Source of the DNA: Methylophilaceae bacterium
GTDB lineage: Bacteria > Pseudomonadota > Gammaproteobacteria > Burkholderiales > Methylophilaceae
Direction: 5' to 3'
DNA length: 64,000 bases
Assembly (NCBI GenBank): GCA_036561085.1
Contig: DATBPY010000023.1
Coordinates: forward strand, 8,367-72,366
Of this stretch, positions 7,924 through 63,138 are shown in pieces. The position numbers and the translations under genes are program-made. Under the pieces are notes generated by a model. That model was given only the letters and a program-made list of their open reading frames with translations, was not told the origin of the DNA and did not search any database. Within the stretch, counting starts at the first letter, position 1; each line of letters opens with the position of its first letter.

Positions 7924-8103
7924 GGAAAACCTCGATTACGTGTTCTGGGAAAATGAGAATTGGGAAGTTCGTTGTTGCTATCGTAGCGAAAAAAAGCCGG
8001 TTCGTGAAGCGCTAAATCATTTTTCCCTACGCATATTGTGTATTCACCTTCTTCTCGTAGGTTGTAAGATGAGGGCATGTCGTGACAGTTCAAGGGCTTG
8101 TTG

Positions 8104-9155: not shown

Positions 9156-9494
9156 TCAGGTTGCAAAAGCATTCTTGATCCATTCTATATTGCGTTCGCC
9201 GTCCAACACGACTACATCGAACCGGCAAGCCATTTCCCGGCTTTGTTGTTGCAAATAGATTTGTGCAGCTCGGATAATGCGACCTTGCTTGGCGCTAGTA
9301 ATACTGCCGACCGCGCCGCCGAAATGCGGGTTAGTACGCAGCCTTACTTCCACAAATACCAGCGTCGTCCCATCATGCAGAATCAGGTCGATCTCACCGA
9401 AGCGGCAGAGAAAGTTGGATTCTATTAATTGCAGTCCGTTCCGTTGCAAATACTCTGAGACTAATTGCTCGGCTGCAGCTCCGTCATTTTTCAC
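9156..9494 (-). CDS. yraN: YraN family (UPF0102) endonuclease-like protein
   Basis: 112 aa with 'GEIDLILHD' and 'FVEVRLR' motifs. Synteny with lpoA and rsmI supports the call. Confidence 0.8.
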   Translation of the reverse strand: MKNDGAAAEQLVSEYLQRNGLQLIESNFLCRFGEIDLILHDGTTLVFVEVRLRTNPHFGGAVGSITSAKQGRIIRAAQIYLQQQSREMACRFDVVVLDGERNIEWIKNAFAT

Positions 9495-34116: not shown

Positions 34117-34425
34117 ATGAAGCTGGTGATAACCAACATGCCCAATCTTAAGGCCGCCGAACAGTTGGCGCAACAGTTGATTGAGTCGCATGTGGCGGCG
34201 TGTGTCAACATTCTGGCACCCTGCACCTCGATCTATCATTGGGCAGGGAGGGTCGAAAACACGCAAGAGTTTCCCCTGCTGATTAAAACTACCGAAGTAC
34301 GTTACCAAGAAGTTCAGAGCATGATACGGGAGCATCACCCGTACGAACTTCCAGAGATTATCTGTGTCGCAGTAGAGGCTGGTTTGCCGGATTATTTGAA
34401 TTGGGTTGAGAACGAAACGAAATGA
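34117..34425 (+). CDS. cutA: divalent-cation tolerance protein CutA
   Basis: 'AACVNILAPCTSIYHWAGRVE' and 'HPYELPEI'. It precedes dsbD as in E. coli. The start is ATG 34117 or GTG 34108. Confidence 0.85.
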   Translation: MKLVITNMPNLKAAEQLAQQLIESHVAACVNILAPCTSIYHWAGRVENTQEFPLLIKTTEVRYQEVQSMIREHHPYELPEIICVAVEAGLPDYLNWVENETK

Positions 34426-36275: not shown

Positions 36276-36766
36276 TCCCTATAGTATTGATTCTCTGCCT
36301 GGTCGCGTTCTTCCTATTCAGATTTTCCGCCGCTAATGCACCAGCTACGACTCAGGCGTTATTCGCTGCCAGTTTCCCCGATGCGCAAAACAAACCGCAA
36401 AGCCTTGCACAATGGCGCGGCAAGGTGATGGTGGTCAACTTCTGGGCGAGTTGGTGTCCGCCCTGCCGCGAGGAAATGCCGGGATTGGATGCTTTGCAAA
36501 CAAAGTATCTATCCAACGGTGTGCAATTCGTCGGTATTTCTGCTGAAGATGTAAATAAGTTAAATCAATTTTCCAAGGAGGTGAAAGTCAGTTATCCTCT
36601 ATTGGCGGGTGACTTTGACGCCATGTCTTTGGCGCAATATCTTGGTAATGACAAAAGCATATTGCCATACACGGTTGTGATTGATAAGGCTGGTAAAATC
36701 GTTAAAATCTGGTTTGGAATAGTTGACGATTCCGAGTTGGAAAAAACCATTGCAGCCTTGATTTGA
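36251..36766 (+). CDS. TlpA-family thiol:disulfide oxidoreductase
   Basis: 'WASWCPPCREEMP'. The start overlaps the dsbD 3' end by 25 nt. Confidence 0.8.
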   Translation: MSKTTRVLIPIVLILCLVAFFLFRFSAANAPATTQALFAASFPDAQNKPQSLAQWRGKVMVVNFWASWCPPCREEMPGLDALQTKYLSNGVQFVGISAEDVNKLNQFSKEVKVSYPLLAGDFDAMSLAQYLGNDKSILPYTVVIDKAGKIVKIWFGIVDDSELEKTIAALI

Positions 36767-50832: not shown

Positions 50833-51612
50833 ATGAAACGGTTTTTTGTCCTGCTCTGCTTATTAACCTGCAGTTTTTTAAGCCTGAATGCATTTGCGGA
50901 AGCGGACTCCAATCTATGGCCGGTGCTGAAAAAAAGCTTCTTCGGCGACAAACAGATCGATGCTGCTGGTTCCATGAAGCTGGAAGGACCGAGACGCGCT
51001 GAAAGCGGTGCGCAAGTGCCCATCACTTTGACCATAGATAAGCCGGATGCCTTCAAGAATGTATATCTGTTCGTGGATGCCAATCCCATTCCTTTGGCTG
51101 CGGTATACCACTTCACGGCACTTAACGGCAAAGCACAGTTATCTACTCGCATTCGCATGCAGACCGATTCCTTCATTCATGCCGTGGGCGAGACTGCCGA
51201 CGGTAAATTGTCTATGGCTGATATGGTGATACGTGCAGCGGGTGGCTGCGGCGGGGCGGTGGATGGCGACGATACGGAAATTCGCGCGGCCGCCGGCAAA
51301 ATCAAGCTAAGCGTGGAAACACCGGTCAAGTTCGGTGAAGCTAACCCGGTCACGTTTTTAATCAAGCACCCCATGTTCACAGGTCTGCAGCGTGATTTAG
51401 TCTCCGGAGGCTATAAACCGGCATTCTTCATCAGCAAGGTAAGTTTCAGCTATAACAGCAAACCGGTAATGGACGCTGACTTCGGTGTGGCAATTTCAGA
51501 AGATCCTTACATGCGCTTCTTTTACTTGCCTGATGCACCGGGAAAGCTTGATGTGACTGCCTTGGATAACGAAGGCAAAGCATTCACTCATGAGGTGAAT
51601 GTCAGTAATTAA
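50833..51612 (+). CDS. periplasmic SoxY-SoxZ fusion, quinoprotein-dehydrogenase-associated SoxYZ-like carrier
   Basis: Signal peptide, then a SoxY-like half ending in the carrier motif 'AAGGCGG'. The SoxZ-like half carries 'IKHPMFTGLQRD'. Confidence 0.75.
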   Translation: MKRFFVLLCLLTCSFLSLNAFAEADSNLWPVLKKSFFGDKQIDAAGSMKLEGPRRAESGAQVPITLTIDKPDAFKNVYLFVDANPIPLAAVYHFTALNGKAQLSTRIRMQTDSFIHAVGETADGKLSMADMVIRAAGGCGGAVDGDDTEIRAAAGKIKLSVETPVKFGEANPVTFLIKHPMFTGLQRDLVSGGYKPAFFISKVSFSYNSKPVMDADFGVAISEDPYMRFFYLPDAPGKLDVTALDNEGKAFTHEVNVSN

Positions 51613-51652
51613 TCGTAATTGAACGAGCCGGATTAACTTAATGCGGCGCAAC

Positions 51653-51686
51653 AAATAGAAATGGGCGCTATGCGCCCATTTCTATT
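51653..51686. terminator. bidirectional hairpin between the convergent SoxYZ-like and cytochrome b561 genes
   Basis: AAATAGAAATGGGCGC-TAT-GCGCCCATTTCTATTT, a 16-nt perfect inverted repeat with A/T-rich flanks on both sides. Confidence 0.7.
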
Positions 51687-51710
51687 TGAAAATTGCCGGT
51701 AATTCCGAAG

Positions 51711-52304
51711 CTATTTACCGAGTGACATGCGCCTCATGACCTCATCCTTGTCTACGATCATGTGTTTTAAGGCGGCCAGCATATGGATTACAACCAGAGT
51801 CACTAGCAGCCATGCGATCGTCTCGTGTATCTCCTTGAAGACGAGGCGCAGGGGTTCATTGTCAAGACCGGTGATGACAGGGATGCCGAACCATTTCACA
51901 CCGTATTTGCTATAGGCACCCATGATCAGGCCGCTTAGCGGCATCAGGAACATCAACAAATAGAGCAAGTGATGGGATGCATGAGCGGCTTTTTGTTGCC
52001 AAGCGACCATAGAGGCTGGCAAAGGCGGTGCAGCATGGGTGAGACGCCAGAGGATACGCAGTAATATCAAGGCGGCGACAGTAATACCGAATGATTTATG
52101 CAAATTGAAATAATAGGATCTGAGAGAGATAGCTTCAGTGAACTGTACGGTATGCAGGTGCCAATTGAATAGATCAACAGACATGACCTTGGCAGCATCT
52201 TTGGGCAAGGTAGACATATACCAACCTAAAGCCAGCATGCCGATTATCATTACCGCAATCAGCCAGTGCAGGATAATGGCAACTTTGGTGTAGCGTGTGT
52301 TCAT
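51711..52304 (-). CDS. cytochrome b561 family (CybB-like) membrane protein
   Basis: 'KVAIILHWLIAV', four TM helices with conserved His ('HKSFG', 'HHLLY', 'IHMLAALKH'). A GGAGA sequence precedes the ATG at 52304. Confidence 0.8.
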   Translation of the reverse strand: MNTRYTKVAIILHWLIAVMIIGMLALGWYMSTLPKDAAKVMSVDLFNWHLHTVQFTEAISLRSYYFNLHKSFGITVAALILLRILWRLTHAAPPLPASMVAWQQKAAHASHHLLYLLMFLMPLSGLIMGAYSKYGVKWFGIPVITGLDNEPLRLVFKEIHETIAWLLVTLVVIHMLAALKHMIVDKDEVMRRMSLGK

Positions 52305-52453
52305 GTAATATCTCCATATCAAACATTGAAAAATTACTGCGCTTAATTAGTCCGAGGCGCATGCTTTAAGTTCATGGCAACCAGATGACATGCGCGCGGT
52401 CAAAAGTATGACCGTCATCATAACCTGAACTCCTAATACAGAGGTTTAACATA

Positions 52454-53386
52454 TTGTATCGTTCGCTTGCACTGATGCTGTTTCACGCCTCGCTCTATAG
52501 CACGTTTTTTTTCTCGCTCATCGCGGCGGCCGAGCCGTTGCCGGTTACGGAAGTTGCCCCCGGTGTTTTTGTACATCAAGGCGTGCATGAAGAGTTGACC
52601 GAAGGTTATCACGGCGACATCGCCAACATCGGTTTTGTGGTGGGTAAAACTGCCGTGGCGGTAATTGATACCGGCGGCACACTGGAAGTCGGTAAGCGCT
52701 TGCGCGAAGCGGTACGTCAAGTCACCGATCTACCTATTGCCTATGTCATCAACACGCATGTTCACCCGGACCATATTTACGGTGACGCAGCATTTTTGCA
52801 AGATCATCCGCAGTTCGTAGGACATTTCAAACTGGCCGATGCGTTGGAGTTGCGTCGGGATATGTACCAGAGAAATAACCTAGAAGTATTGGGAGCTGCT
52901 TTTGCCGGTAGTGAGATAGTAAAGCCCACATTGTTAGTTAAGGATACACGGGAGCTTGATCTGGGTAACCGTGTTCTGCAACTCAAGGCATGGTCGCCCG
53001 CGCATACCAATACGGATCTGACGGTGTTTGATACCGCCAGCCAGACTTTATGGACAGGCGATCTGTTGTTCATTGAGCGAACTCCTGCCATGGATGGAGA
53101 TACCCGCAATTGGCTCAAACTCATCCCATTACTCAAAGCGATCCCCGCGAAAATGGTTATTCCTGGACATGGCAGACCCACTGCGCAAGGACAACAGGCT
53201 TTCGATCGCGAGCAACATTATTTTGAGGTGATACTGGCCGACATTCGTGCCAGCATCAAAAAAGGTGAGACCATGGAAAGCACCATGGATCATGCGGCCG
53301 CCAGTGAAAAAGATTCCTGGGTACTATTTTCTACCGTCAATCGTCGTAATATCAACTTACTGTATCCGCAGCTGGAATGGGAGTGA
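52454..53386 (+). CDS. periplasmic metallo-beta-lactamase-fold hydrolase (quinoprotein-relay-type / SoxH-like)
   Basis: Signal peptide and zinc motif 'NTHVHPDHIYGD', with later 'PAHTNTD' and 'PGHG'. TTG start with AGAGG upstream. Confidence 0.8.
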   Translation: MYRSLALMLFHASLYSTFFFSLIAAAEPLPVTEVAPGVFVHQGVHEELTEGYHGDIANIGFVVGKTAVAVIDTGGTLEVGKRLREAVRQVTDLPIAYVINTHVHPDHIYGDAAFLQDHPQFVGHFKLADALELRRDMYQRNNLEVLGAAFAGSEIVKPTLLVKDTRELDLGNRVLQLKAWSPAHTNTDLTVFDTASQTLWTGDLLFIERTPAMDGDTRNWLKLIPLLKAIPAKMVIPGHGRPTAQGQQAFDREQHYFEVILADIRASIKKGETMESTMDHAAASEKDSWVLFSTVNRRNINLLYPQLEWE

Positions 53387-53443
53387 CAAGGTTGATCTAA
53401 GCACGTGATTGTTACTGCTATAATCCCAGCCTTTCAATGTTTT

Positions 53444-54220
53444 ATGTCGCGCAACATGGCGCATCCTACCCATTCCATTCACCCAAATAATGACCTGCTG
53501 CTGTGGGCATTGGTATTGTCTATCGGCCTGCATAGCGCAGCACTGGGATTGTTGCCTGGGTTCAGTTTTAGCCATCCTATAAACAGGATAGAACCGTTGA
53601 CGGTGGAGTTGCAACAACTGCCGCCCCCTCCAGCAGTAGAGCCGGAAAAACCGAAACCACCTGAGCCGCCAAAACCGCAACCCAAACCCAGGCAGGAGAA
53701 ATTACCGCCTAAAGTGGTGCCGCAACCGGTGACGCCTCCCTCCGCTCCTGCCGTGGTGCCGCAGCATAATGAACCTCCTCCACCTGTTGTCACGTCAGAG
53801 CCTCCTAAGGCTGCGCCATCGCCCGCTGTAATTGTGGAGCAGAAACCTGTTGAATCGCACCCGGCAATTACTGTGCCTGTGGCGACACCGAGCGCTCCCG
53901 CACCCGATGAAGACACTTTGGGTGAAGTAAGAGCTGCTTATGGCCGGTTGTTAAATAGCGAATTCTCCAAACACACCAGATACCCTCCTGTAGCAGCACT
54001 GAAAGGCTGGGAAGGGAAAGTACACATCAAGCTACAGATCGATAAAGATGGAAATGTGATTGGAACGCCTGAAGTCACTGAAGGTAGCGGTTACAAAATG
54101 CTCGATGACGACGCAGTCAAGACCATACTGAAATGTTCCCCACTGCCTTTGCCTCCTGCAGCATTGTTTACCAAGCCGGTATTTATCAATACCATTATTG
54201 ACTATCATAAACAGCGATGA
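53444..54220 (+). CDS. tonB: energy transducer TonB
   Basis: TM anchor with 'LHSAAL', a long Pro-rich spacer (EPEKPKPPEPPKPQPKP...) and a C-terminal 'GSGYKMLDDDAVKTI' domain. Confidence 0.75.
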   Translation: MSRNMAHPTHSIHPNNDLLLWALVLSIGLHSAALGLLPGFSFSHPINRIEPLTVELQQLPPPPAVEPEKPKPPEPPKPQPKPRQEKLPPKVVPQPVTPPSAPAVVPQHNEPPPPVVTSEPPKAAPSPAVIVEQKPVESHPAITVPVATPSAPAPDEDTLGEVRAAYGRLLNSEFSKHTRYPPVAALKGWEGKVHIKLQIDKDGNVIGTPEVTEGSGYKMLDDDAVKTILKCSPLPLPPAALFTKPVFINTIIDYHKQR

Positions 54221-54307: not shown

Positions 54308-54763
54308 ATGCTTAATCAAGTTGTGCCTGATTTCAGTCTGCCCATGACGGGTGGAAATGACTTTCAACTGCATGAGTTTAAAAATAAAAAGCTGGTGATT
54401 TATTTTTATCCTAAAGATGCTACCCCAGGATGTACGACAGAAGGTCAGCAATTTCGCGATCTATATGCACAATTCCAGGCCGCAGATGCAGAGGTATTTG
54501 GCGTCTCGCGCGATTCCATCAAATCTCATGAAGCTTTCAAAGCCAAGCTCGGTTTACCTTTCCAACTGCTGAGCGACGACGAAGAACTGGCATGCCGGCT
54601 GTTCGATGTCATCAGGATGAAGAATATGTATGGTAAACAGGTTAGAGGCATCGAACGCAGCACGTTTTTGATAGACGCGTCCGGTGTGCTCAAACAAGAA
54701 TGGCGCAAAGTAAAGGTAGACGGTCACGCGCTTGCAGTGCTTGAAGCAGTCAAAACTATTTAA
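54308..54763 (+). CDS. bcp: thioredoxin-dependent peroxiredoxin Bcp
   Basis: 'FYPKDATPGCTTE' peroxidatic Cys motif. Confidence 0.9.
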   Translation: MLNQVVPDFSLPMTGGNDFQLHEFKNKKLVIYFYPKDATPGCTTEGQQFRDLYAQFQAADAEVFGVSRDSIKSHEAFKAKLGLPFQLLSDDEELACRLFDVIRMKNMYGKQVRGIERSTFLIDASGVLKQEWRKVKVDGHALAVLEAVKTI

Positions 54764-54788
54764 ACTTTTAGGAACCTCGGATCGATTC

Positions 54789-56186
54789 ATGGCAAAAAAC
54801 CCCAGTGCAACCACAAAATTATTTGTTCTAGATACCAACGTGATGATGCACGATCCCTCCAGTCTATTCAGATTCGAGGAGCATGATGTCTACCTGCCCA
54901 TGGTGACGCTGGAAGAACTGGACAACAGCAAGAAAGGCATGACGGAAGTCGCGCGTAATGCACGTCAGGCCAGCCGCTTTATCGAAGAGGTGATCGGTAC
55001 CAACCTGAACGATCTGGAACTAGGCTTTCCGCTTGCTCAGAACGGCAATAAATTCAGTAGCGGACGTTTATTCCTGCAAACACAACCGGCCACCGAAGAG
55101 CTTCCCATGCTGGCCGGCAGCAAGGCCGATAACCAGATCCTGGGCGTCGTCGCCCAACTGCAAAAGAACTTCCCCCAGCGTCAGGTCATTCTGGTCAGCA
55201 AGGATATCAACATCCGCATCAAAGCACGTGCGATGGGGATCTCTGCCGAAGATTACTTTAACGACAAAGTACTGGAAGATACCGATCTACTCTATACCGG
55301 CGTGAGGGAATTGCCGCGGGATTTTTGGGAGAGCCATAGCAAGGAAATGGAATCCTGGCAGGAATCTGGGCGCATGTTTTACCGCCTGCATGGGCCGCTT
55401 TGCTCTTCATTATTGATCAATCAGTTCGTGTACTACGAGCACGAAGCACCTTTCTATGCCATCGTTTGCAAACAGGAAGGCAACTCGGCTGTACTGGAAG
55501 TATTGAAGGATTATACGCAGCAGAAGCATAACGTATGGGGCATCACTGCACGTAATCGCGAGCAGAGTTTTGCGCTGGATTTGCTAATGAATCCGGAGAT
55601 CGACTTCGTGAGCTTGCTGGGGCAAGCAGGTACCGGCAAGACGTTGCTTACTTTGGCCGCAGCCTTGACGCAGACGCTGGACAAGAAGATCTATAGCGAA
55701 ATCATCATGACGCGGGTCACGGTTCCCATGGGTGAAGATATCGGCTTCCTGCCCGGTACCGAAGAAGAAAAAATGACGCCATGGATGGGCGCATTGGAAG
55801 ATAATCTGGATGTATTGAACAAGACCGATGACGAAGCTGGAGACTGGGGGCGGGCTGCCACTCAGGACCTGATACGGACTCGCATCAAGGTAAAATCGAT
55901 GAACTTTATGCGCGGGCGTACCTTCCTGCACAAGTTCTTGATCATTGATGAAGCACAGAACCTGACTCCCAAACAAATGAAATCGCTGATCACTCGGGCC
56001 GGACCGGGCACCAAGGTGGTCTGCCTCGGCAATATTGCGCAGATCGATACACCCTATCTGACCGAGGGCAGTTCCGGTCTGACCTATGTGGTGGATCGCT
56101 TCAAGGGTTGGCCGCATAACGGACATATCACGCTGACGCGCGGTGAACGTTCGCGCCTGGCCGATTTCGCTGCCGAGGTTCTTTAG
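54789..56186 (+). CDS. PIN-domain + PhoH-like ATPase (YlaK family)
   Basis: N-terminal 'FVLDTNVMMHDP' PIN motif and Walker A 'GQAGTGKTLL'. Start at the internal ATG at 54789. Confidence 0.85.
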   Translation: MAKNPSATTKLFVLDTNVMMHDPSSLFRFEEHDVYLPMVTLEELDNSKKGMTEVARNARQASRFIEEVIGTNLNDLELGFPLAQNGNKFSSGRLFLQTQPATEELPMLAGSKADNQILGVVAQLQKNFPQRQVILVSKDINIRIKARAMGISAEDYFNDKVLEDTDLLYTGVRELPRDFWESHSKEMESWQESGRMFYRLHGPLCSSLLINQFVYYEHEAPFYAIVCKQEGNSAVLEVLKDYTQQKHNVWGITARNREQSFALDLLMNPEIDFVSLLGQAGTGKTLLTLAAALTQTLDKKIYSEIIMTRVTVPMGEDIGFLPGTEEEKMTPWMGALEDNLDVLNKTDDEAGDWGRAATQDLIRTRIKVKSMNFMRGRTFLHKFLIIDEAQNLTPKQMKSLITRAGPGTKVVCLGNIAQIDTPYLTEGSSGLTYVVDRFKGWPHNGHITLTRGERSRLADFAAEVL

Positions 56187-56204
56187 TCGATCTGACTATT
56201 TGAT

Positions 56205-57365
56205 ATGAATCGCGGTTTTTACACTATTTTGTCGGCGCAGTTTTTATCTGCATTGGCTGACAATGCCTTGTTGTTCGCCGCGATTGCCATGCTGGCTGAG
56301 CGGCATGCGCCGAATTGGCATGTGCCGCTATTACAGCAGTTCTTTGTCATTTCCTATATTGTGCTGGCTCCTTTTGTTGGGCCGTTCGCCGATTCCATAC
56401 CCAAAGGCCGCGTTATGTTTATCGCAAACGCGATCAAGTTCATAGGCTGCGCTGCTATGTGGATGGGGTTGCCTCCGCTGTATGCATATAGCATCGTAGG
56501 TTTTGGCGCTGCGGCTTACTCTCCGGCCAAATACGGTATCTTGACGGAATTTCTGCCACAAGAGGACTTGGTAAAAGCGAATGGCTGGATGGAAGGTACC
56601 ACAGTAGGCGCTATTATTCTGGGGGCCATTGTAGGCGGGCATATGGCGAGTATCAGCCCCTATTTCGCATTAGGCATGATTATTTGCCTGTATCTGATTG
56701 CGGCGCTGTTTAACTTATATATTCCCCAGGTAGCGATAGACCATGAGATACCTCAACGCAACTTATTTTATCTGTTGCGGGATTTTTGGCGCTCTTTCGC
56801 CATTTTATGGCGCGACCCACAAGGCCAGGTATCGCTGGCGGTAACTACCTTATTCTGGGGCGTAGGTTCTACCATGCGTCTGGTGATCATCACATGGGCT
56901 GCTGCTGCCTTGCATTTCGGATTGGATCGCGCTACCCAGTTGACGGCAATGGTAGCACTGGGAATCGCTTTCGGTTCGGTATTCGCCGCGCGTTACGTCA
57001 AACTGGAAGACTCGGTGAAAGTATTGCCCGCAGGCATCCTGATGGGGGTATGTGTGATGGCGATGTACTTTATTTCCGACTGGCATTTGGCCGCCATCAA
57101 TCTGTTCATACTTGGTGTGTTGTCGGGATATTTCGTGGTGCCGCTCAATGCCTTGTTGCAGCATCGGGGGCACCATTTGATCGGTGCCGGTCATTCGATT
57201 GCAGTGCAGAATTTCAATGAGAATATCGGCATCCTGCTACTGACAGGACTCTATACCTTGATGGTGAAGATTGAACTGCCCATTCTGTGGATCGTGGTGA
57301 TCTTCGGTGCTTTTGTGAGCCTGATCATGGCAGCCATCAACCGGCACTATCGCAAGACATGCTGA
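56205..57365 (+). CDS. lplT: MFS lysophospholipid transporter LplT-like
   Basis: 386 aa with about 12 TM helices. N-terminus 'FYTILSAQFLSALADNALLFA' resembles LplT. Confidence 0.7.
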   Translation: MNRGFYTILSAQFLSALADNALLFAAIAMLAERHAPNWHVPLLQQFFVISYIVLAPFVGPFADSIPKGRVMFIANAIKFIGCAAMWMGLPPLYAYSIVGFGAAAYSPAKYGILTEFLPQEDLVKANGWMEGTTVGAIILGAIVGGHMASISPYFALGMIICLYLIAALFNLYIPQVAIDHEIPQRNLFYLLRDFWRSFAILWRDPQGQVSLAVTTLFWGVGSTMRLVIITWAAAALHFGLDRATQLTAMVALGIAFGSVFAARYVKLEDSVKVLPAGILMGVCVMAMYFISDWHLAAINLFILGVLSGYFVVPLNALLQHRGHHLIGAGHSIAVQNFNENIGILLLTGLYTLMVKIELPILWIVVIFGAFVSLIMAAINRHYRKTC

Positions 57366-57394
57366 TAGTGCCGATGGATTGTAGTCGAAACAGA

Positions 57395-58750
57395 TTAATG
57401 CAGTTTGACGTGGGGGGAGGCGCGGCGCGTGATGATCTGCGCGATGGTGTCTAAAACCACCTTGGTCAATCCATGCAATGCGAACAAGTGCATTTTGTAT
57501 AGCATGCGATACATAAGCCCGGCAAAACTGCCTTGAATGAACAGTGCTCCACCTGTCAGTCCACCCATTAGATTCCCCACCGTACTATATTTGCCTAGGC
57601 TCACCAAAGAGCCGAAATCGCGATAACTGTACTCTGGTAAGGATTTACCTTTGAGTCTGCGTTTAACGGATTTAAGCAGCATGGAAGCCTGCTGGTGGGC
57701 AGCTTGCGCGCGAGCCGGTACCAGAATGTCTCTGCCTTGAGCGTCTTTTCCCTGAGCAACCCACGGGCATGCAGCGCAATCGCCGAGAGCGAAAATATTA
57801 TCGTCATTAGTGGTCTGTAAGGTGGTTTTGACGACCAACTGATTCGACCAATTGGTCTCCAGACCATCCATGTTTTTCAGGAAATCCGGGGCTTTGATCC
57901 CGGCAGCCCATACGACGAGGCTGGCGGCCACCAAGAGTCCATCTTTGGTATGCACCCCTTCTGCATCTACTTTCGTAACGCGTTGACCCAGCTTTAGCTC
58001 AACATTCAGCTTTTCCAATTGGCGCTGCACTTCCAGCGAGATATCTTCCGGGAGTGCCGGCAGAATCCTCGGTGCAGCCTCGATAATGCTTAATTTCACA
58101 TCCCGGTCAGGATTGATGTTATCCAGCCCGTGCGCAGCCAACTGGCGTGTCGTATTGTGTAATTCAGCCGACAATTCCACTCCGGTTGCGCCGCCGCCAA
58201 TGATGGCCACGTTCAAATGTCCTTGGTGGCTGTCGGTGGGAGCTACTTGAGTACGAATACAAGCGTTGATCAGGCGGCGATGGAAGGTAGCAGCTTCGGC
58301 TTGGGTTTCCAGTGCTACAGCGTATTCCTGAACTCCGGGAATGCCAAAATCGTTGGAAACACTGCCTACTGCAATGATCAGCGTGTCATAGTGAATTTCC
58401 CGTACCGGAATCAACACCTTGCCATCTTCATCATGAGTAGGTGAGAGGGTGATGATCTGTTTGCTCCTATCCAGCTTTTCCAGCGCGCCCAGACGGAAAT
58501 TGAAATGATGCCAGTAACCCTGGGCAATGTATTCAATTTCGTGTTCATCCATATCCATGCTACCCGCCGCTACTTCATGCAGCAGCGGTTTCCACATATG
58601 CGTGGAATATTTATCTACCAGAGTCACCATGGCTTTTCCCCGCTTGCCGAGCTGATCTCCCAAGCGAGTGGCTAATTCCAAACCTCCAGCCCCACCACCT
58701 ACAACTACAACGTGGTGTAATTCTTTTCCAACCTGGTTTACTACAGACAT
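57395..58750 (-). CDS. ndh: type II NADH:quinone oxidoreductase (NDH-2)
   Basis: Two dinucleotide folds, 'VVVGGGAGGLE' and 'IIGGGATGVE'. Confidence 0.9.
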   Translation of the reverse strand: MSVVNQVGKELHHVVVVGGGAGGLELATRLGDQLGKRGKAMVTLVDKYSTHMWKPLLHEVAAGSMDMDEHEIEYIAQGYWHHFNFRLGALEKLDRSKQIITLSPTHDEDGKVLIPVREIHYDTLIIAVGSVSNDFGIPGVQEYAVALETQAEAATFHRRLINACIRTQVAPTDSHQGHLNVAIIGGGATGVELSAELHNTTRQLAAHGLDNINPDRDVKLSIIEAAPRILPALPEDISLEVQRQLEKLNVELKLGQRVTKVDAEGVHTKDGLLVAASLVVWAAGIKAPDFLKNMDGLETNWSNQLVVKTTLQTTNDDNIFALGDCAACPWVAQGKDAQGRDILVPARAQAAHQQASMLLKSVKRRLKGKSLPEYSYRDFGSLVSLGKYSTVGNLMGGLTGGALFIQGSFAGLMYRMLYKMHLFALHGLTKVVLDTIAQIITRRASPHVKLH

Positions 58751-58767
58751 GATGACTCCAAAACTAT

Positions 58768-59295
58768 TTATTCGTTACCCGTGGTTTTGCCGTGGGATCT
58801 AATCCATGCGATTACTTGCAGCACTTCGTCCGGCGTCAGACCATTAGTTGGATCCGTTGGATCCATCAGGCCTTTGCCCTTTGCGCCCATACCGTTATTG
58901 GTGCCATGCCATATGGTTTCGAACATACCCTTGTTAGTGGCGTTCTTCGGGTAGTGGAAATCGGGACCATGCAGGCTGGGGCCCGTTTGCCCTTGTGCAT
59001 CTCCGCCATGACATTGCGTGCAGGAGTATGCCTGGAATAATTTTTTCCCCTTGGCCTCTGCATCTGCATTGCCAACGTAGGGGTCTTTGCCGGTAGAAGC
59101 AAATTCTTTTGCCTGGGGAGTGTCAAACAATTCAGGCTTGATGGCTAAAGCCGAACCATCCTGAGTCGAGACAAAATCCAACATCTTTCCATCACCGCCA
59201 CCCGCAGCAGCTGCTTTATCGCCCCCTTTGTTACCGCAAGCAGTTAGAGCCAAGGCCAGCATGCCAGAAATGACGACCAAATTAATTTTGTTCAT
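58768..59295 (-). CDS. lipoprotein c-type cytochrome (XoxG-like paralogue 2)
   Basis: Lipobox 'LTAC', heme motif 'CTQCHG' and 'GMGAKG' Met-ligand region. GGAGG lies upstream of the ATG at 59295. Confidence 0.75.
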   Translation of the reverse strand: MNKINLVVISGMLALALTACGNKGGDKAAAAGGGDGKMLDFVSTQDGSALAIKPELFDTPQAKEFASTGKDPYVGNADAEAKGKKLFQAYSCTQCHGGDAQGQTGPSLHGPDFHYPKNATNKGMFETIWHGTNNGMGAKGKGLMDPTDPTNGLTPDEVLQVIAWIRSHGKTTGNE

Positions 59296-59345
59296 ACCTA
59301 ACACCTCCCTAAAAAAAGAAGTAATTCTACCTGAAACTGGTGCCA

Positions 59346-59385
59346 TAAAAAAACAAACGGCCATTGCATCATGCAATGGCCGTTT
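59346..59385 (-). terminator. Rho-independent terminator between the two cytochrome c genes
   Basis: 14-bp perfect stem AAACGGCCATTGCA/TGCAATGGCCGTTT with a 3-nt loop. On the minus strand it is followed by GTTTTTTTAT. Confidence 0.85.
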
Positions 59386-59407
59386 ATAGGGTACTGATTA
59401 AACCTGA

Positions 59408-59911
59408 TTATTCGTTGCCGGACGGATGGTTTCCGCCTTCGTTACGAATCCAGGAGATGATCTTCAATACTTCGTCAGGCTTCAAACCATCGGTAGGATC
59501 GGTAGGGTTCATCAGACCTAAGCCTTTAGCACCCATGCCCCCATTGGTGCCGTTCCAGATGGTTTCAAACATACCTTTATTGGTAGCATCTTTTGGATAT
59601 CTGAAGGTAGGGCCTAACAAGCCAGGGCCTACTTGACCTTTAGCTTCAGGTCCGTGGCACTGAGTACAGGAGTAATAGCCGAATCTTTTTTTACCGGCTT
59701 TGATAGCCTCTTCGTTACCGATATAAGGATTCTTGCCGGTTGCCAAGAATTCCTTAGCGGCCGGAGTATCGAATAATTCCGGCGCAATCTTGATTGGCGA
59801 GCCATCGGTTGTGGTTACCAGATCGATCGCCGCAGCCTTCAGGGGCAGTGCTAGTGCAGCGAGTGCGAGCATAGAAACCAAGAAAGTGGTTTTTACTTTA
59901 TTGCCTAACAT
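59408..59911 (-). CDS. xoxG: periplasmic c-type cytochrome (XoxG-like paralogue 1)
   Basis: Signal peptide, 'CTQCHG' and 'GMGAKG'. It follows xoxJ. Confidence 0.8.
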   Translation of the reverse strand: MLGNKVKTTFLVSMLALAALALPLKAAAIDLVTTTDGSPIKIAPELFDTPAAKEFLATGKNPYIGNEEAIKAGKKRFGYYSCTQCHGPEAKGQVGPGLLGPTFRYPKDATNKGMFETIWNGTNGGMGAKGLGLMNPTDPTDGLKPDEVLKIISWIRNEGGNHPSGNE

Positions 59912-59949
59912 GACATCTCCTCTTTGATAATTGTATTCAAGTTGTAATT

Positions 59950-59992
59950 TAAAAAAAATGCACTAGTTCGTACTTGAATAACGAACTAGCGC
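59950..59992 (-). terminator. Rho-independent terminator after xoxJ
   Basis: Minus-strand GCGCTAGTTCG-TTATTCAAGTA-CGAACTAGTGC followed by ATTTTTTTT. Confidence 0.7.
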
Positions 59993-60030
59993 AAATCCCG
60001 TTGACGACAGAATTATGCCAGAAAAAAGCC

Positions 60031-60939
60031 TTATTCTGACTTCGGTATGACATCTCCCTTTGGTTCATCTTTTCTCTTGAATTCCAGCTTGTCGCCTTCA
60101 ACAACAGGTACGTGAGGAACGCCATAGTCATCCAGTATCTTGTTGATTTTATCCACATTGCGATCAAGAGCGCCTTGTATCATCGCCATACGTTCCTTGT
60201 CTTTATGGCGCACACCTATAGAGATATTCCAGTACTCTTTGCCTTTAGGGTTGACTCCCTCATATTCAGGAATAGGTACTACCACCAAAGGTATTTTGGC
60301 ATGTTTAGCGAAATAGCCGCCTATCGGACCCCAATCAATGACAATGTCTGCTTTTCCGGCGACCAAGTCGTCAACCAGATAGCTGGACGGCAAGTTCAAA
60401 TCGCGTTGCATACGATATGGGTGTGCATTTTCCATCAGATCGTGGTCTCTGAGCGGAATGGTCGCAGGGCTTTGCCCGTCGATGGCGATGACGCCTTTGC
60501 GTAGATCAGGAGAATCCCAATCTTTAATGTTGTAACCACTATCCTTGCGATAAATAAATACATGGCCGGAGCGGTAATAAGGTTTCGACGTTCTCATCAT
60601 GTCGTTATCGCTGGTAGTGCTCATGACTACATCGCAACGGTTGGCGTTAAGAGTATTACGGATAAAACCCATGCGGTCAGGCCAGAACTGAAAGGACAGT
60701 TTTTTGCCTAAATCGGCAGCCAATACGGCTGCTATCTTGTTCTCGAAACCTTCTTGTTTGGAGTTGGAGTAAGGCAGAAAGTCTGGATCTGCACATACTT
60801 TGAATTCGGTACCATCATCTACACGCATTGCTTCGCCTGGCCTACCTGAATTCAAGTCAACAGGTATATCGTCGGCGGCATATGCAATGCCTGCCATCGT
60901 TAAGGCAAGAATTAAAAATGTAAGTTTTTTTAGCATCAT
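60031..60939 (-). CDS. xoxJ: MxaJ/XoxJ-type periplasmic binding protein (quinoprotein dehydrogenase-associated)
   Basis: 302 aa with a signal peptide and a type-2 periplasmic-binding fold ('KVCADPDFLPYS'). It lies immediately downstream of xoxF. Confidence 0.8.
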   Translation of the reverse strand: MMLKKLTFLILALTMAGIAYAADDIPVDLNSGRPGEAMRVDDGTEFKVCADPDFLPYSNSKQEGFENKIAAVLAADLGKKLSFQFWPDRMGFIRNTLNANRCDVVMSTTSDNDMMRTSKPYYRSGHVFIYRKDSGYNIKDWDSPDLRKGVIAIDGQSPATIPLRDHDLMENAHPYRMQRDLNLPSSYLVDDLVAGKADIVIDWGPIGGYFAKHAKIPLVVVPIPEYEGVNPKGKEYWNISIGVRHKDKERMAMIQGALDRNVDKINKILDDYGVPHVPVVEGDKLEFKRKDEPKGDVIPKSE

Positions 60940-61077: not shown

Positions 61078-62973
61078 TTACAGGCTGAACACGTTCAGTA
61101 CACCGCCGCCAGGAGCAGCATTGTACTTCGTCAGTTCAGCATAACCACCAGCAGCACCAAGAGCGTCTGTTGGAGTGGTCAGACCCAGGTTCATCGCCAC
61201 GCCAGCCCAACCGCCGATACCGGACAGTACGCCAACGTATTGCTTACCTGCATGGCCGTAGGTGAAGGCATTGCCGATCACGCCGGAACCAACTTGGAAC
61301 TTCCACAGTTCCTTACCGGTGTTAGCGTCAAGAGCCTTGAACCAACGATCCAGGGTGCCGTAGAACACCAGATCAGAAGCGGTGGTCAGAGCACCACCCC
61401 AAGCGGAGAATTTCTCCTTGTTGTACCACTTGGCTTTGTTGGTCATAGGATCGTAAGCGCCGAAGCCGCCCATCACGCCATCAGGACCAGGGAACATGGT
61501 CAGGGTAGCGCCAACCCAAGGTTGACCTGCAACATACTTGGACTCAACTGGCTCGTAGGTCATGCAAACGTGGTTGAGTGGGGTATATACCAGGCCGGTA
61601 CGTGGGGAGTAAGCAGCTGGCTGCTGGTCCTTGGTACCCAATGCTGCTGGGCAAACACCCTTGGCATTGTAGTCTTGGTGGGTAGAAGCGGATGCCAACT
61701 TGTTAGGCACACCGGTCTTCATATCAACATCTGTTGCCCAGTTCACGAATGGGTGAACTTTTTGAGCTGCAATCAGAGTGCCGGTATGAGCATTCCAGGT
61801 GTAAGCGAAACCGTTACGGTCATGGTGCCAAGCGTAGGTCTTGCCGCCCTTGTCGAACAGGATTTCTTCGTTGATGCCATCATAATCCCACTCATCGTGT
61901 GGGGTCATTTGCATCGCCCATTTAGCCATACCGGTGTCCAGGTCGCGAGCCCAGGTGGTCATGGACCACTTGTTGTCGCCAGGACGTACGTCTGGATTCC
62001 AAACGGATGGGTTACCGGAACCGTAGTAAACCAGATTGGTACGTGGGTCATATGGCCACCAGCCCCATACGGAACCGCCACCATGTTGCCAACCGTCTTT
62101 AACTGCTTGTGGCTTGAGCCAGGTCTTTACGCCCAGGTCGGTTTCACCGATCTTCAGTTGGTCGTTAGGGATCTTCTTGAAGGAACCGCCTTGCTTGTTA
62201 CCGCCATTGACATCTTCGTATACAGACAGAGCGTTGTATTGAGGATTGTCTTTGTTGGTGTCAGCATTGATCAGCACTTCGCTGTCTGGGCCCATGCTGT
62301 ATGCGCGCCATGCCAAAGAACCGTCCTTGATGTTGTAAGCGCTGATGTGGCAACGAACACCGAATTCAGCACCGGAGCAACCGGTCAGGATCAAGTCTTT
62401 TCTGATTTGTGGAGCATTGGTGTTGGTAGCGCCAACCTTAGGATCGTTAACTTTAACGTCCCAAACTTTAGCACCGGTCTTTGCATCCAGAGCAATCAAC
62501 ACACCGTCGTTTTGTTGCAACAGTACCTTGCCGTCACCGAAGCCCAGACCACGGTTCACGTTGTCGCAGCACAGAACTGCTTGAACGGATGGATCTTGTT
62601 TAGGGAAATAAGCCCAAACGATCTTTTGATTGTCGTTCAGATCAAGTGCGTACACGTTGTTTGGGAATGCGGTATGAACATACATCATGTTACCGATAAC
62701 CAAAGGAGCACCTTCATGGCCGCGGTTTACACCGGTAGCGAAAGTCCAAGCTGCTTTAACGTTCTTGACGTTGCCTTTGTTGATTTGGGACAGTTTTGAA
62801 TAACCTTGGTTATCATATTGACCGCGTGGGTCTGCCCAGTTGTTTGCATCTTTCATTGCGGCTTCGTGGTCTGCAGCTGCAACAGCTACATTAGCAGCCG
62901 TCGCGGCCATAGGCATAGCTATGGACATACCAGCTGCCAGCCCGAGGGCCAACTTGATTTTATTAATCTCCAT
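61078..62973 (-). CDS. xoxF: PQQ-dependent methanol dehydrogenase, lanthanide-type XoxF
   Basis: Signal peptide, vicinal 'CC' disulfide pair ('AVLCCDNV') and 'WDYDG'. The extra Asp is diagnostic of Ln-dependent XoxF, where MxaF has DYAG. ATG at 62973 with GGAG upstream. Confidence 0.9.
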   Translation of the reverse strand: MEINKIKLALGLAAGMSIAMPMAATAANVAVAAADHEAAMKDANNWADPRGQYDNQGYSKLSQINKGNVKNVKAAWTFATGVNRGHEGAPLVIGNMMYVHTAFPNNVYALDLNDNQKIVWAYFPKQDPSVQAVLCCDNVNRGLGFGDGKVLLQQNDGVLIALDAKTGAKVWDVKVNDPKVGATNTNAPQIRKDLILTGCSGAEFGVRCHISAYNIKDGSLAWRAYSMGPDSEVLINADTNKDNPQYNALSVYEDVNGGNKQGGSFKKIPNDQLKIGETDLGVKTWLKPQAVKDGWQHGGGSVWGWWPYDPRTNLVYYGSGNPSVWNPDVRPGDNKWSMTTWARDLDTGMAKWAMQMTPHDEWDYDGINEEILFDKGGKTYAWHHDRNGFAYTWNAHTGTLIAAQKVHPFVNWATDVDMKTGVPNKLASASTHQDYNAKGVCPAALGTKDQQPAAYSPRTGLVYTPLNHVCMTYEPVESKYVAGQPWVGATLTMFPGPDGVMGGFGAYDPMTNKAKWYNKEKFSAWGGALTTASDLVFYGTLDRWFKALDANTGKELWKFQVGSGVIGNAFTYGHAGKQYVGVLSGIGGWAGVAMNLGLTTPTDALGAAGGYAELTKYNAAPGGGVLNVFSL

Positions 62974-63109
62974 GTTGAATCTCCGTAGTGATTTACTTAC
63001 TAAGGGTTTTAGAGAAGCCTCCCTTTTCGTCCGAGCCACTGTATAAAACATTAACTCACATCGATAGAAAAGATAGACTCCGCTGCATTTTGTATATGCA
63101 GCTAATGCG

Positions 63110-63138
63110 ATACTAGAGCAGTCATAATCGAATTGCAA
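63110..63138 (-). promoter_or_regulatory. candidate sigma70-like promoter for xoxF (TTGCAA-17 nt-TAGTAT)
   Basis: Sequence-only call. It would give a leader of about 130 nt containing a 7-bp hairpin GCTGCAT-N7-ATGCAGC (63082-63102). Confidence 0.25.

Follow-up and report, generated by a model that had tools for sequence, protein, structure and literature searches.

The locus

The window that we analyzed is a 64-kb stretch of DNA from a Methylophilaceae bacterium. It encodes a 259-amino-acid protein that joins a SoxY-like domain to a SoxZ-like domain, and we will call this protein the carrier. Its open reading frame begins with ATG (the coordinates in Table 1 include the stop codon), and the opposite strand has stop codons throughout. 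Downstream of the carrier are a convergent gene for a cytochrome b561-family protein (99 bp away), a gene for a SoxH-like hydrolase (which starts 842 bp away), and an xoxGGJF cluster for a lanthanide-type methanol dehydrogenase (7-11 kb away, with XoxF at 9.5 kb).

Table 1. Features of the carrier locus, with coordinates in the window
Feature	Coordinates	Strand	Evidence
Fused SoxYZ-like carrier gene	50833..51612	+	ORF, TIGR04557, Pfam SoxY and SoxZ, PDB alignments, AF2, Foldseek
Carrier domains: signal, aa 1-22; SoxY-like, ~aa 29-141; linker, aa 142-155; SoxZ-like, aa 156-257			
Codons G137-G138-C139-G140-G141	51241..51255	+	Aligned with GGCGG at the C-terminus of SoxY structures
Interdomain linker, aa 142-155, AVDGDDTEIRAAAG	51256..51297	+	SoxY end and SoxZ start from PDB alignments
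Hairpin (17 bp, perfect) in the gap between the carrier and cytochrome b561 genes, which converge	51652..51688	.	Sequence and folding
Cytochrome b561-family membrane di-heme protein	51711..52322	-	Pfam Ni_hydr_CYTB, E 4.6e-32
Type-2 SoxH-like "quinoprotein relay system" zinc metallohydrolase 2	52454..53386	+	TIGR04559, 398.7 bits (cutoff 280)
TonB-family protein	53405..54220	+	TonB C-terminal domain
PrxQ/BCP-type thiol peroxidase	54308..54763	+	NCBIfam scan; 2.7 kb downstream of the carrier
Two tandem XoxG-like c-type cytochromes	58768-59376 and 59408-59911	-	Cytochrome c(L), TIGR03872
XoxJ-like periplasmic binding protein	60031..60939	-	TIGR03871, 264.9 bits (cutoff 212)
XoxF lanthanide-type PQQ methanol dehydrogenase	61078..63138	-	TIGR03075, 615 bits

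A secreted SoxYZ fusion of the TIGR04557 family

The original prediction described the carrier as a secreted SoxY-SoxZ fusion, and our results bear this out. As read from the sequence, the N-terminus (MKRFFVLLCLLTCSFLSLNAFA, followed by EADS) is a Sec-type signal peptide that spans residues 1-22 and ends in AFA. Pfam's SoxY model matches residues 34-139 (E = 2.3e-31) and its SoxZ model matches residues 165-255 (E = 1.3e-26). The two sequence elements that had been pointed out are also where they were said to be: the SoxY-like half ends in AAGGCGG (residues 134-143 are RAAGGCGGAV), and the SoxZ-like half carries IKHPMFTGLQRD at residues 177-188. An AF2 model from a deeper alignment has a pLDDT of 90.6 and a pTM of 0.85, and it places a helix at residues 2-17, in the signal region. 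Foldseek found SoxZ (TM 0.90) and SoxY (TM 0.84). A search of a viral fold library (BFVD) with the carrier returned generic Ig-like matches only.

The original prediction also named a curated family of SoxYZ-like carriers that are associated with quinoprotein dehydrogenases. This family exists as TIGR04557 in NCBIfam, and the carrier is a full-length member of it (positions 1-226 of the 226-position profile; 235.1 bits versus a cutoff of 140; E = 5.9e-70). The SoxY, SoxZ, and TIGR04557 searches all gave strong matches, but the carrier does not reach the cutoffs for the true subunits of the Sox system: it scores 84.1 bits against SoxY_true_GGCGG (TIGR04488; cutoff 125) and 70.5 bits against SoxZ_true (TIGR04490; cutoff 76). 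It has the features of TIGR04557, with SoxY-like and SoxZ-like domains on one polypeptide and a GGC cysteine between them, and the genomic partners of the family are present as well, namely a SoxH-like hydrolase (TIGR04559) and a PQQ-dependent dehydrogenase (XoxF). The traits of canonical SoxY are missing: there is no free C-terminal GGCGG, no twin-arginine signal, and no soxAX, soxB, or soxCD in the 64-kb window. The carrier is an ordinary member of a catalogued family, so the window brings no new architecture, and both the SoxY-SoxZ fusion and its PQQ/XoxF context have already been published.

Canonical SoxY is exported by the Tat system, and SoxZ is co-exported with it. The carrier's N-terminus (MKRFF...) lacks an RR motif, which is also absent from all 116 close relatives, and RR-like motifs of any kind occur in only about 13-18% of the distant relatives. 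To judge from these N-termini, TIGR04557-type carriers are exported by Sec. Because the family would be exported unfolded through Sec, the fusion plausibly replaces the "hitch-hiking" of SoxZ on SoxY through Tat.

The conserved cysteine lies between the two domains

Cys139 (codon at 51247-51249) is the only cysteine in the mature carrier, and it is presumably the attachment site. The solved SoxY chains 2ox5_Y, 2oxg_Y, and 2nnc_A stop exactly at carrier residue G141, so the cysteine that is C-terminal in canonical SoxY is internal in the carrier, as had been proposed. Another 118 residues come after the GGCGG motif, and residue 5 of SoxZ aligns to carrier residue 156. The 14-residue linker in between is conserved, with D146, A152, and G155 each at 90% or above, and AF2 predicts a short helix at residues 147-153. 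The linker ties down what canonical SoxY has as a free C-terminus.

The cysteine is nearly universal in orthologs. Of 129 divergent representatives, some with only about 28% identity, 128 keep this cysteine; a small clade (P0174, with five members) has lost it. Across the same 129 representatives, G137, G138, and C139 are 98-99% conserved, and they are invariant in our sequence sets A1 and A3. The GGCGG that the original prediction emphasized is present here, but it is not the hallmark of the family. Only GGC is conserved throughout: the major clade has GGCSAP, the window's own clade has GGC[GSA]G, and the full GGCGG is specific to that clade.

Within the confident AF2 model, the cysteine lies in coil, and no part of the mature chain has a lower pLDDT than its loop (~70-78). 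The loop looked disordered in a shallower model that was built from 20 close sequences (pLDDT 74). Because the deeper alignment gave ~70-78 for the loop, we call it flexible or less certain, rather than disordered.

Both folds, the position of GGC(GG), and the presumed covalent role of the cysteine are shared with canonical SoxYZ, as represented by the Paracoccus pantotrophus structures (2ox5, 2oxg, and 2oxh) and a Thermus structure (4uwq). In contrast to SoxYZ, which is two polypeptides with the cysteine on a free C-terminal arm, the carrier is a single chain whose cysteine is tethered on both sides. It also differs in its Sec-type signal, in falling below the equivalog cutoffs, and in lacking SoxAX, SoxB, and SoxCD as partners.

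Genes around the carrier in the window

The hairpin between the carrier and cytochrome b561 genes has a folding energy of -33.9 kcal/mol (z = -6.4), and none of 200 shuffled sequences was as stable. It is probably a bidirectional terminator, in which case the carrier's transcript would stop there. A simple scan for promoters and terminators around the carrier gene found no promoter-like sites, and it missed this hairpin. The carrier, the cytochrome b561, and the hydrolase are separate transcription units in the window.

The hydrolase is a secreted protein of the metallo-beta-lactamase (MBL) fold that contains no cysteine. Its translation includes the motif THVHPDH...AHT...TGD...PGHG. Its nearest solved relatives are an uncharacterized MBL protein and a chlorothalonil dehalogenase, and there are weak matches to GloB and 2xf4. 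Like SoxH of P. pantotrophus and the other members of TIGR04558 and TIGR04559, it would be a periplasmic MBL-fold hydrolase with a binuclear metal site, encoded beside a SoxY-type carrier. Unlike the SoxH of sox clusters, it is of the PQQ-associated type 2 (399 bits) and has no cysteine. We presume that it is the partner enzyme of the carrier. The original prediction left out this hydrolase, which is the carrier's most telling neighbor.

The TonB-family gene begins 19 bp past the hydrolase gene and is probably co-transcribed with it. The PrxQ/BCP peroxidase is a conserved neighbor whose functional tie to the carrier is uncertain, and a gene of the flavoprotein disulfide-reductase family lies 5.8 kb downstream of the carrier. 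We also considered a VOC-fold neighbor as a direct partner, and rejected it because it is cytoplasmic, with no signal peptide.

XoxF had been named as the nearest redox system. XoxF is indeed in the window, but the cytochrome b561, the PrxQ/BCP peroxidase, and the flavoprotein are all closer. The best PDB matches of the XoxF reading frame are to XoxF (6oc5 and 6dam), and it contains PHDEWDYDG (with the DYD motif) and VLCCD (with vicinal cysteines); translation probably begins at the Met at 62973. For both of the XoxG-like cytochromes, the best match in NCBIfam is TIGR03872, at about 95 bits each, which is below the cutoff of 147.8. Because the housekeeping genes phoH and lplT separate the carrier region from the xox genes, which are 7-11 kb off, the local linkage may be inherited synteny. 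We rejected the Methylophilaceae gene order BCP-PhoH-LplT-flavoprotein-xoxG as functional evidence, since it is limited to one family and is interrupted by housekeeping genes.

The claim that sox genes are missing also stands: among all sizeable open reading frames of the window, a scan with NCBIfam found no SoxAX, SoxB, or SoxCD.

Carriers in other genomes

The best 80 of 215 hits in our scan of a genome collection are all from Methylophilaceae, and we compared the loci of these 80. Among these 80, 43 have cytochrome b561 on the opposite strand, 45-185 bp downstream of the carrier; 41 have a TIGR04559-type hydrolase near the carrier; and 39 have PrxQ/BCP near the carrier. Divergent homologs of the TonB-family protein are found in the window and in 40 Methylophilaceae loci, which together match the set that has the hydrolase, and we confirmed that the TonB-family gene directly follows the hydrolase gene in two of them (L008 and L013). 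In 37 of the best 80, the carrier has housekeeping genes instead of such neighbors, and no PQQ-dependent dehydrogenase is encoded within 10 kb. The association of the carrier with PQQ genes is loose inside the Methylophilaceae, and looser than in other taxa.

For distant taxa, we examined nine contigs that encode carrier homologs. An MBL gene lies within 7 kb of the carrier in all nine, and in seven it is immediately upstream and co-directional, with gaps of -10 to +89 bp. All four of the MBL proteins that we scanned against NCBIfam are of type 2; three are adjacent to the carrier (L081 and L088) and one is 4 kb away (L084). These hydrolase-carrier pairs are usually beside XoxF-type PQQ dehydrogenases: PHDEWDYDG is present in 5 of the 6 neighboring dehydrogenases that we checked, and the vicinal cysteines are present in all 6. 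No sox genes were found in the nine loci. Orthologs in distant taxa accompany PQQ dehydrogenases and SoxH-like hydrolases, rather than sox genes.

Some carriers are naturally fused to other proteins. We found fusions to SoxH-like MBL proteins (P0160 and P0246/P0271) and to CXXCW rhodanese-like proteins of TIGR03865 (P0187/P0273). Both kinds are rare, yet each recurs on independent contigs. No CXXCW rhodanese or second MBL protein was found in the window or in the Methylophilaceae loci. In other lineages, a small uncurated protein with four cysteines is encoded next to the carrier.

Published examples of TIGR04557 include PP_2677 from Pseudomonas putida, the META1p1703-1705 locus of Methylobacterium extorquens, the Sox(YZ) fusion of Hyphomicrobium denitrificans, and "SoxYZ-S2/S4" (PMC11237559). 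The window resembles these in the full-length and above-cutoff match, the fused architecture, the loop cysteine, the secretion signal, and the presence of a TIGR04559 hydrolase and XoxF, XoxG, and XoxJ as neighbors. It differs in its motif (GGC[GSA]G instead of the GGCSAP of the major clade) and in the placement of the hydrolase gene, which in Methylophilaceae is downstream, beyond the convergent cytochrome b561, instead of immediately upstream. Also, the window lacks both the CXXCW rhodanese and the small cysteine-rich partner.

The original prediction stated that no cargo or function had been shown for the family, which agrees with PMC12997753, PMC11237559, and PMC11582611. We found no functional experiment in the literature on PP_2677, PP_2678, META1p1703-5, SoxH function, or 8D2Z. 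The supplement to a lanthanum proteome of P. putida lists PP_2666 alone, at a lower level with La on one substrate.

The role of the carrier and its possible cargo

We are very confident that the carrier is a Sec-exported, periplasmic, single-chain SoxYZ-type protein of TIGR04557 that acts outside of thiosulfate-oxidizing Sox, in an accessory module of lanthanide-type PQQ-dependent alcohol or methanol dehydrogenases (XoxF or PedH type). The SoxY-like and SoxZ-like domains would pack as in the SoxYZ heterodimer, with Cys139 at the tip of a loop of small residues (GGC-G/S-G/A). An adduct would attach covalently to the cysteine through a thio link, and the loop would offer it to the active sites of partner proteins. 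The type-2 hydrolase, as the constant partner with a binuclear metal site, would hydrolyze the adduct and restore the free thiol. In other lineages, this cysteine might trade sulfur or redox equivalents with the CXXCW rhodanese-like protein. We infer that an adduct forms, what it is, and which enzyme acts on it.

Our preferred cargo, which we propose tentatively and at somewhat less than an even chance, is an inorganic sulfur adduct (a persulfide, S-sulfonate, or thiosulfonate), so that the carrier and the hydrolase would form a two-component, Sox-derived cycle for the protection or repair of XoxF. Such an adduct might arise in XoxF when sulfide, sulfite, or thiosulfate reacts with PQQ, which is electrophilic, or with the strained disulfide of the vicinal cysteines; it would then pass to the carrier, to be released by the hydrolase. 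Both proteins derive from Sox-cluster proteins (SoxY, SoxZ, and SoxH), and the rhodanese-like protein, which recurs as a third partner, folds like a sulfurtransferase. In H. denitrificans, which has the fusion beside a PQQ enzyme, thiosulfate reportedly inhibits growth on methanol and not on formate, and it has been speculated that SoxH could release sulfate from SoxY. On the other side, no adduct has been reported in the literature for any member of the family, and RB-TnSeq of P. putida, which was performed without lanthanides, gave minimal phenotypes. Because Methylophilaceae and many of the other hosts are not sulfur oxidizers, a sulfur cargo would have to come from the environment. Also, the MBL fold leaves the hydrolyzed bond unspecified. 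The more general proposal that the carrier and the SoxH-like hydrolase comprise a minimal two-protein cycle of covalent catalysis on or with XoxF, whether it relays aldehydes or repairs sulfur adducts of PQQ or of the vicinal disulfide, is possible but on the doubtful side. If it is true, then the small four-cysteine protein would be a further, unrecognized component.

An aldehyde cargo seems rather unlikely to us. Cys139 would trap the aldehyde product of XoxF, and the resulting hemithioacetal would be oxidized to a thioester by XoxF itself or by a different oxidant. The MBL protein would then hydrolyze the thioester to an acid, as glyoxalase II does, and so restore the carrier. This would be a protein-bound, periplasmic analog of glutathione-dependent formaldehyde oxidation, in which, as in the glyoxalase system, a thiol captures an aldehyde, oxidation or isomerization turns the adduct into a thioester, and an MBL-fold enzyme (glyoxalase II) hydrolyzes this thioester. 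The analogy is mechanistic only, and the thiol would be a loop cysteine in the periplasm instead of cytoplasmic glutathione. The module is consistently tied to XoxF-type dehydrogenases, the hosts are mostly not sulfur oxidizers, and C1 genes such as Fae and H4MPT genes are found in two of the loci (L087 and L089). The hydrolase has the full THxHxDH...H...D...H site in common with glyoxalase II, along with its weak matches to GloB and 2xf4, but this motif is generic to the superfamily. A relay of aldehydes would also leave the Sox ancestry of both proteins, the recurrent rhodanese-like partner, and its fusion to the carrier unexplained. Furthermore, XoxF and PedH already oxidize free aldehydes, and the RuMP cycle of Methylophilaceae depends on free formaldehyde. 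The authors of PMC11237559 lean toward a role in carbon metabolism, and in Rhodobacter and a roseobacter soxH is part of the adhI-xoxF-gfa cluster.

It is less probable still that the module matures the dehydrogenase or supplies its cofactors, whether by forming or maintaining the vicinal disulfide, by chaperoning a thio-adduct of PQQ, or by processing a lanthanide or PQQ complex that was imported via TonB. Thiols bind hard Ln3+ ions poorly, the hydrolase has no obvious part in disulfide formation, many organisms with XoxF manage without the module, and there is no supporting phenotype. Such a role would fit the association with lanthanide-type enzymes (the DYD motif), including the presence of the carrier next to pedH and its absence from P. 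aeruginosa. It would also fit the adjacent pqqD/pqqE genes in four loci (L081, L083, L084, and L086), the TonB-family genes that accompany the hydrolase in Methylophilaceae, and the TonB-dependent receptor gene that adjoins the hydrolase gene in L082; and a published review suggests disulfide formation or cofactor stabilization. We think it very unlikely that the protein is cleaved after the cysteine motif, to yield a separate SoxZ and a SoxY of canonical form, with its C-terminal arm free. Although the alignment to SoxY stops exactly at GGCGG and a hydrolase is encoded nearby, most members of the family have GGCSAP, without a GG end; the length and sequence of the linker are conserved, with a packed helix predicted in it; and no peptidase is known among MBL-fold enzymes of this type. 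Finally, the similarity to SoxY and SoxZ, the retained GGCGG, and JGI's labeling of homologs as "sulfur-oxidizing protein SoxY" might suggest a genuine Sox carrier that serves thiosulfate oxidation, with the sox genes elsewhere in the genome. Given the scores below the curated cutoffs, the internal cysteine, the Sec signal, and the lack of sox genes in the window and the nine distant loci, we consider this extremely improbable. Also, a published phylogeny of SoxY sets the fusions apart from canonical SoxY, and their hosts cannot oxidize thiosulfate.

Implications for lanthanide-dependent alcohol oxidation

The comparison across genomes identifies GGC as the conserved unit of the family, the type-2 hydrolase as its constant partner, natural fusions to the hydrolase and to the rhodanese, and Sec as the probable route of export. 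Within the Methylophilaceae, a TonB-family gene accompanies the hydrolase, and cytochrome b561 accompanies the carrier. If the cysteine does act from an internal loop, then it would be a "finger" instead of a "swinging arm," which would be a new way of presenting carrier-bound intermediates. Either a relay of aldehydes or a repair cycle for XoxF would be a new biochemical role for the SoxYZ scaffold. Identifying the cargo would explain why methylotrophs, pseudomonads, and marine symbionts have a Sox-derived carrier and hydrolase that travel with lanthanide-dependent alcohol dehydrogenases, and it could reveal a periplasmic route for handling aldehydes or a protection mechanism that joins the sulfur and C1 cycles.

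A fused carrier with an internal cysteine

The carrier gene begins with ATG, the 72-bp gap on its 5' side holds a good ribosome-binding site (AAGGA), and the opposite strand is closed by stop codons. Its product starts with what reads as a Sec-type signal peptide (MKRFFVLLCLLTCSFLSLNAFA/EADS). Pfam finds SoxY at residues 34-139 (E = 2.3e-31) and SoxZ at 165-255 (E = 1.3e-26). The models for true SoxY (84.1, cutoff 125) and true SoxZ (70.5, cutoff 76) score it below their cutoffs, and the protein belongs to TIGR04557, the quinoprotein dehydrogenase-associated SoxYZ-like carriers. The cysteine motif RAAGGCGGAV spans residues 134-143, and IKHPMFTGLQRD spans 177-188 in the SoxZ-like half.

When aligned to solved structures, G141 coincides exactly with the end of canonical SoxY chains (...GGCGG-COOH), and residue 156 aligns with residue 5 of SoxZ. 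A 14-residue linker (142-155) lies between them, so the cysteine is internal, whereas in canonical SoxY it is penultimate on a free C-terminal arm. The original prediction of a 259-amino-acid secreted SoxY-SoxZ fusion with an internal carrier cysteine agrees in every particular with the reading frame, the Pfam matches, and this alignment.

A first structural model, from a shallow alignment, was mediocre (pLDDT 74). A second, built from 120 sequences at 30-85% identity, was confident (mean pLDDT 90.6, pTM 0.85) and gave the two-domain SoxYZ-like fold: two beta-sandwich domains, packed together, of which the C-terminal superimposes on SoxZ (TM 0.90, rmsd 1.5 Å) and the N-terminal on SoxY (TM 0.84). 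The cysteine loop (about 136-146) is modeled as coil, is the least confident part of the mature chain (block means of 78 and 70), and is followed by a short helix (147-153). Since the loop is coil of low confidence, Cys139 is probably exposed to solvent.

Conservation and export

An exhaustive search of representative sequences with the carrier found 1639 clusters (E ≤ 1e-3). GGCGG is invariant in close relatives. Among 129 full-length representatives, reaching down to about 28% identity, G137, G138, and C139 are 98-99% conserved, and 128 have the cysteine, whose conservation in orthologs the original prediction had made a test. Cys139 is the sole cysteine of the mature carrier, and the family has a nearly universal single cysteine on a flexible loop of small residues. 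The major clade (95/129) has GGCSAP; two small clades, that of the window (11 representatives) among them, have glycine at the second position after the cysteine (GGC[GSA]G). Because the two residues after the cysteine vary, the sequences indicate that the family hallmark is GGC, not GGCGG. In a cluster of five (P0174 and P0274-P0277), GFS replaces GGC, and this clade, at 219.9 bits, still passes the TIGR04557 cutoff. If the cysteine is essential, these proteins must function either in another way or not at all.

Twin-arginine motifs are absent from all 116 close relatives and rare among other relatives, which suggests that the family is mainly exported by Sec. Canonical SoxY leaves through Tat and takes SoxZ with it. 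Fusion would thus be a simple way to send both halves, unfolded, through Sec.

Gene neighborhood

Features in the window and, where a locus is named, in other carrier loci
Feature	Coordinates	Strand	Evidence or remark
Moco genes, flhB, flhA			upstream of carrier
Carrier	50833-51612	+	TIGR04557; 259 aa
Perfect 17-bp hairpin	51652-51688		-33.9 kcal/mol, z -6.4
Cytochrome b561	51711-52322	-	Pfam E 4.6e-32; convergent with carrier
Quinoprotein relay system zinc metallohydrolase 2	52454-53386	+	TIGR04559, 399 bits (cutoff 280)
TonB-family gene	53405-54220	+	19 bp past hydrolase
PrxQ/BCP, PhoH2-like, LplT, flavoprotein disulfide-reductase homolog	54308-58750
Two XoxG-like cytochromes and XoxJ-like binding protein	58768-60939	-	cytochromes at 58768-59376 and 59408-59911
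XoxF	61078-63138	-	best PDB matches 6oc5, 6dam
Periplasmic thiol-redox genes (DsbD; ResA-like)	34422-36766; 8098-8565	+	DsbD 584 bits
565-aa ORF	9491-11188	-	no NCBIfam match at E ≤ 1e-6
384-aa ORF	29267-30421	+	no NCBIfam match at E ≤ 1e-6
EfeB-like Dyp peroxidase	30418-31668		directly 3' of 384-aa ORF
VOC/glyoxalase-fold protein, 157 aa	L073:9439-9912	+	no signal peptide
Small secreted protein, 112-130 aa, conserved Cys	L081:9863-10219; L083:9848-10207; L087:9966-10325	-
Same type	L088:9905-10243; L089:9819-10211	-
Same type	L082:16392-16670	+
MAPEG-family gene	L083:613-1002	+
MAPEG-family gene	L085:6393-6782	-

A scan of all sizeable reading frames in the 64-kb window found no SoxAX, SoxB, or SoxCD, as originally predicted. 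The strongest functional clue, which the original prediction missed, is the SoxH-like hydrolase: it is secreted, lacks cysteine, and has a complete site (THVHPDH...AHT...TGD...PGHG). XoxF carries the motifs PHDEWDYDG and VLCCD. The carrier and cytochrome b561 genes converge on the inverted repeat AAATAGAAATGGGCGC..tat..GCGCCCATTTCTATTT, which probably terminates transcription in both directions; a consensus terminator scan did not detect it.

The tandem XoxG-like c-type cytochromes, which adjoin xoxJ and xoxF, each score about 95 bits against cytochrome c(L) (TIGR03872), below its cutoff; a tblastn census found a single copy in several related loci. The window's dsbD is followed by an overlapping gene for a TlpA/ResA-like thioredoxin-fold protein, and a second ResA-like protein is encoded near rho. 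These proteins could be a source or sink of reducing equivalents for a periplasmic cysteine carrier.

The best 80 of 215 loci from species-representative genomes, all from Methylophilaceae, show two arrangements. Class A, in which 43 loci have cytochrome b561 and 41 the hydrolase, shares the window's layout: carrier, b561 (reverse strand), then hydrolase-TonB(-histidine kinase)-BCP-PhoH-LplT-flavoprotein-xoxG-xoxJ, with a variable upstream side. In class B (37 loci, from Methylotenera and Methylophilus), the carrier sits amid housekeeping genes (aspS-apt-VOC-carrier-yjbQ-trhP), with no class A partner within 10 kb. Synteny between carrier and xox genes within this family is weak functional evidence, since housekeeping genes are scattered among them.

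Highly divergent homologs of the TonB-family gene occur in 40 of these 80 loci, directly 3' of the hydrolase in both that were checked (L008 and L013). A sensor histidine kinase comes next in 32 and is missing from the window. A VOC-fold gene, not in the window, adjoins the carrier in 43/80 loci of both classes. In about 33 class B loci it shares the carrier's strand and precedes it by 116-389 bp; in about 11 class A loci it is reversed relative to the carrier, at an upstream distance of 131-290 bp or about 2.5 kb.

Distant loci and natural fusions

Much stronger evidence comes from across phyla. In nine loci outside Methylophilaceae (Phyllobacterium, Kiloniellales, Geminicoccaceae, Gammaproteobacteria, and others), an MBL-fold gene is always within 7 kb of the carrier, and in seven it is directly upstream and co-directional (gaps of -10 to +89 bp). 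All four of these MBL proteins that were scanned against NCBIfam are type-2 hydrolases. The carrier's constant partner is a cysteine-free hydrolase with a binuclear metal site. XoxF-type neighbors recur as well: at least 5/9 loci have a PQQ dehydrogenase within 9 kb, all five of these enzymes have the vicinal CC, and four have PHDEWDYDG. Other recurrent neighbors are pqqD/pqqE, a pentapeptide protein, XoxG/XoxJ, and a CXXCW rhodanese (TIGR03865). No sox genes were seen in the nine loci; in these distant taxa the orthologs do accompany PQQ dehydrogenases rather than sox genes.

The carrier is also naturally fused to its partners. Fusions to the SoxH-like hydrolase form two independent clusters, P0160 and P0246/P0271 (the latter found independently in ENA and Logan), and P0187/P0273 join the carrier to the rhodanese. 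In L085 (4038-6415), the hydrolase gene runs 10 bp into the start of a carrier-rhodanese fusion gene.

Several distant loci encode a small secreted protein (DYPT..YV..CM..NG....CSCSID.IA...AET...PGE..FRD...KRAQ.EAE.RCF) that matches no Pfam or NCBIfam family. It is convergent with and directly 3' of the carrier in 5/9 loci; in a sixth it lies a short way ahead of the PQQ dehydrogenase, and it is absent from the window and the Methylophilaceae loci. Possibly it belongs to the module as a component not yet curated. Two unrelated loci have a MAPEG-family (membrane glutathione-transferase-like) gene close to the carrier; that of L085 is convergent and overlaps the 3' end of the fusion gene. In L082, a TonB-dependent receptor flanks the hydrolase.

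Possible functions

The family is already described. A 2026 review of the ped cluster lists PP_2677 (SoxYZ-like carrier), PP_2678 (SoxH-like hydrolase), and PP_2666 (rhodanese), which are absent from P. aeruginosa and conserved with lanthanide-dependent PQQ dehydrogenases; homologs in M. extorquens are META1p1703-1705. Without lanthanides, RB-TnSeq showed minimal phenotypes, and the review speculated about disulfide or cofactor maintenance, or shielding PQQ from sulfur nucleophiles. [quoted passage not shown] 2024). The family name given in the original prediction was right, and so was its statement that no cargo or function had been shown: we found no report of either a cargo or a phenotype.

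We propose that the hydrolase would free Cys139 of a covalently bound adduct. Tentatively, the adduct may be one of sulfur (persulfide, S-sulfonate, or thiosulfonate), because carrier and hydrolase were recruited jointly from Sox ancestry, the third partner that recurs has the fold of a sulfurtransferase and in some cases is part of the carrier's own chain, XoxF has two electrophiles open to sulfur nucleophiles (PQQ and the strained vicinal disulfide), and thiosulfate reportedly inhibits methanol-dependent growth in an organism with the module. A relay of aldehydes as hemithioacetals or thioesters is chemically attractive but leaves the rhodanese unexplained, and we consider it rather unlikely. 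The TonB and pqq links would fit a role in maturation or in supplying cofactor or lanthanide, which we think improbable.

Two further readings have still less to recommend them. The linker residues D146, A152, and G155 are at least 90% conserved in the 120-sequence alignment, which argues for a structured tether and not a cleavable spacer; cleavage of the carrier to a canonical arm seems very improbable. A true Sox function is hardly credible: in a 2024 study of the SoxY family (PMC11237559), hosts of the fused clades SoxYZ-S2 and SoxYZ-S4, which are linked to PQQ-ADH/soxH and xoxF/fdh, were unable to oxidise thiosulfate, and a 2026 paper on Sox evolution explicitly sets such proteins apart from genuine SoxY and SoxZ.

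Both the observation and the interpretation in the original prediction were right, and the finding was already known: the carrier brings no new architecture or system, being an unexceptional member of a family that is both curated and published. On the question of cargo, this window offers no better test than the model organisms already do, and it is on that question, for the family as a whole, that the significance of the carrier rests.
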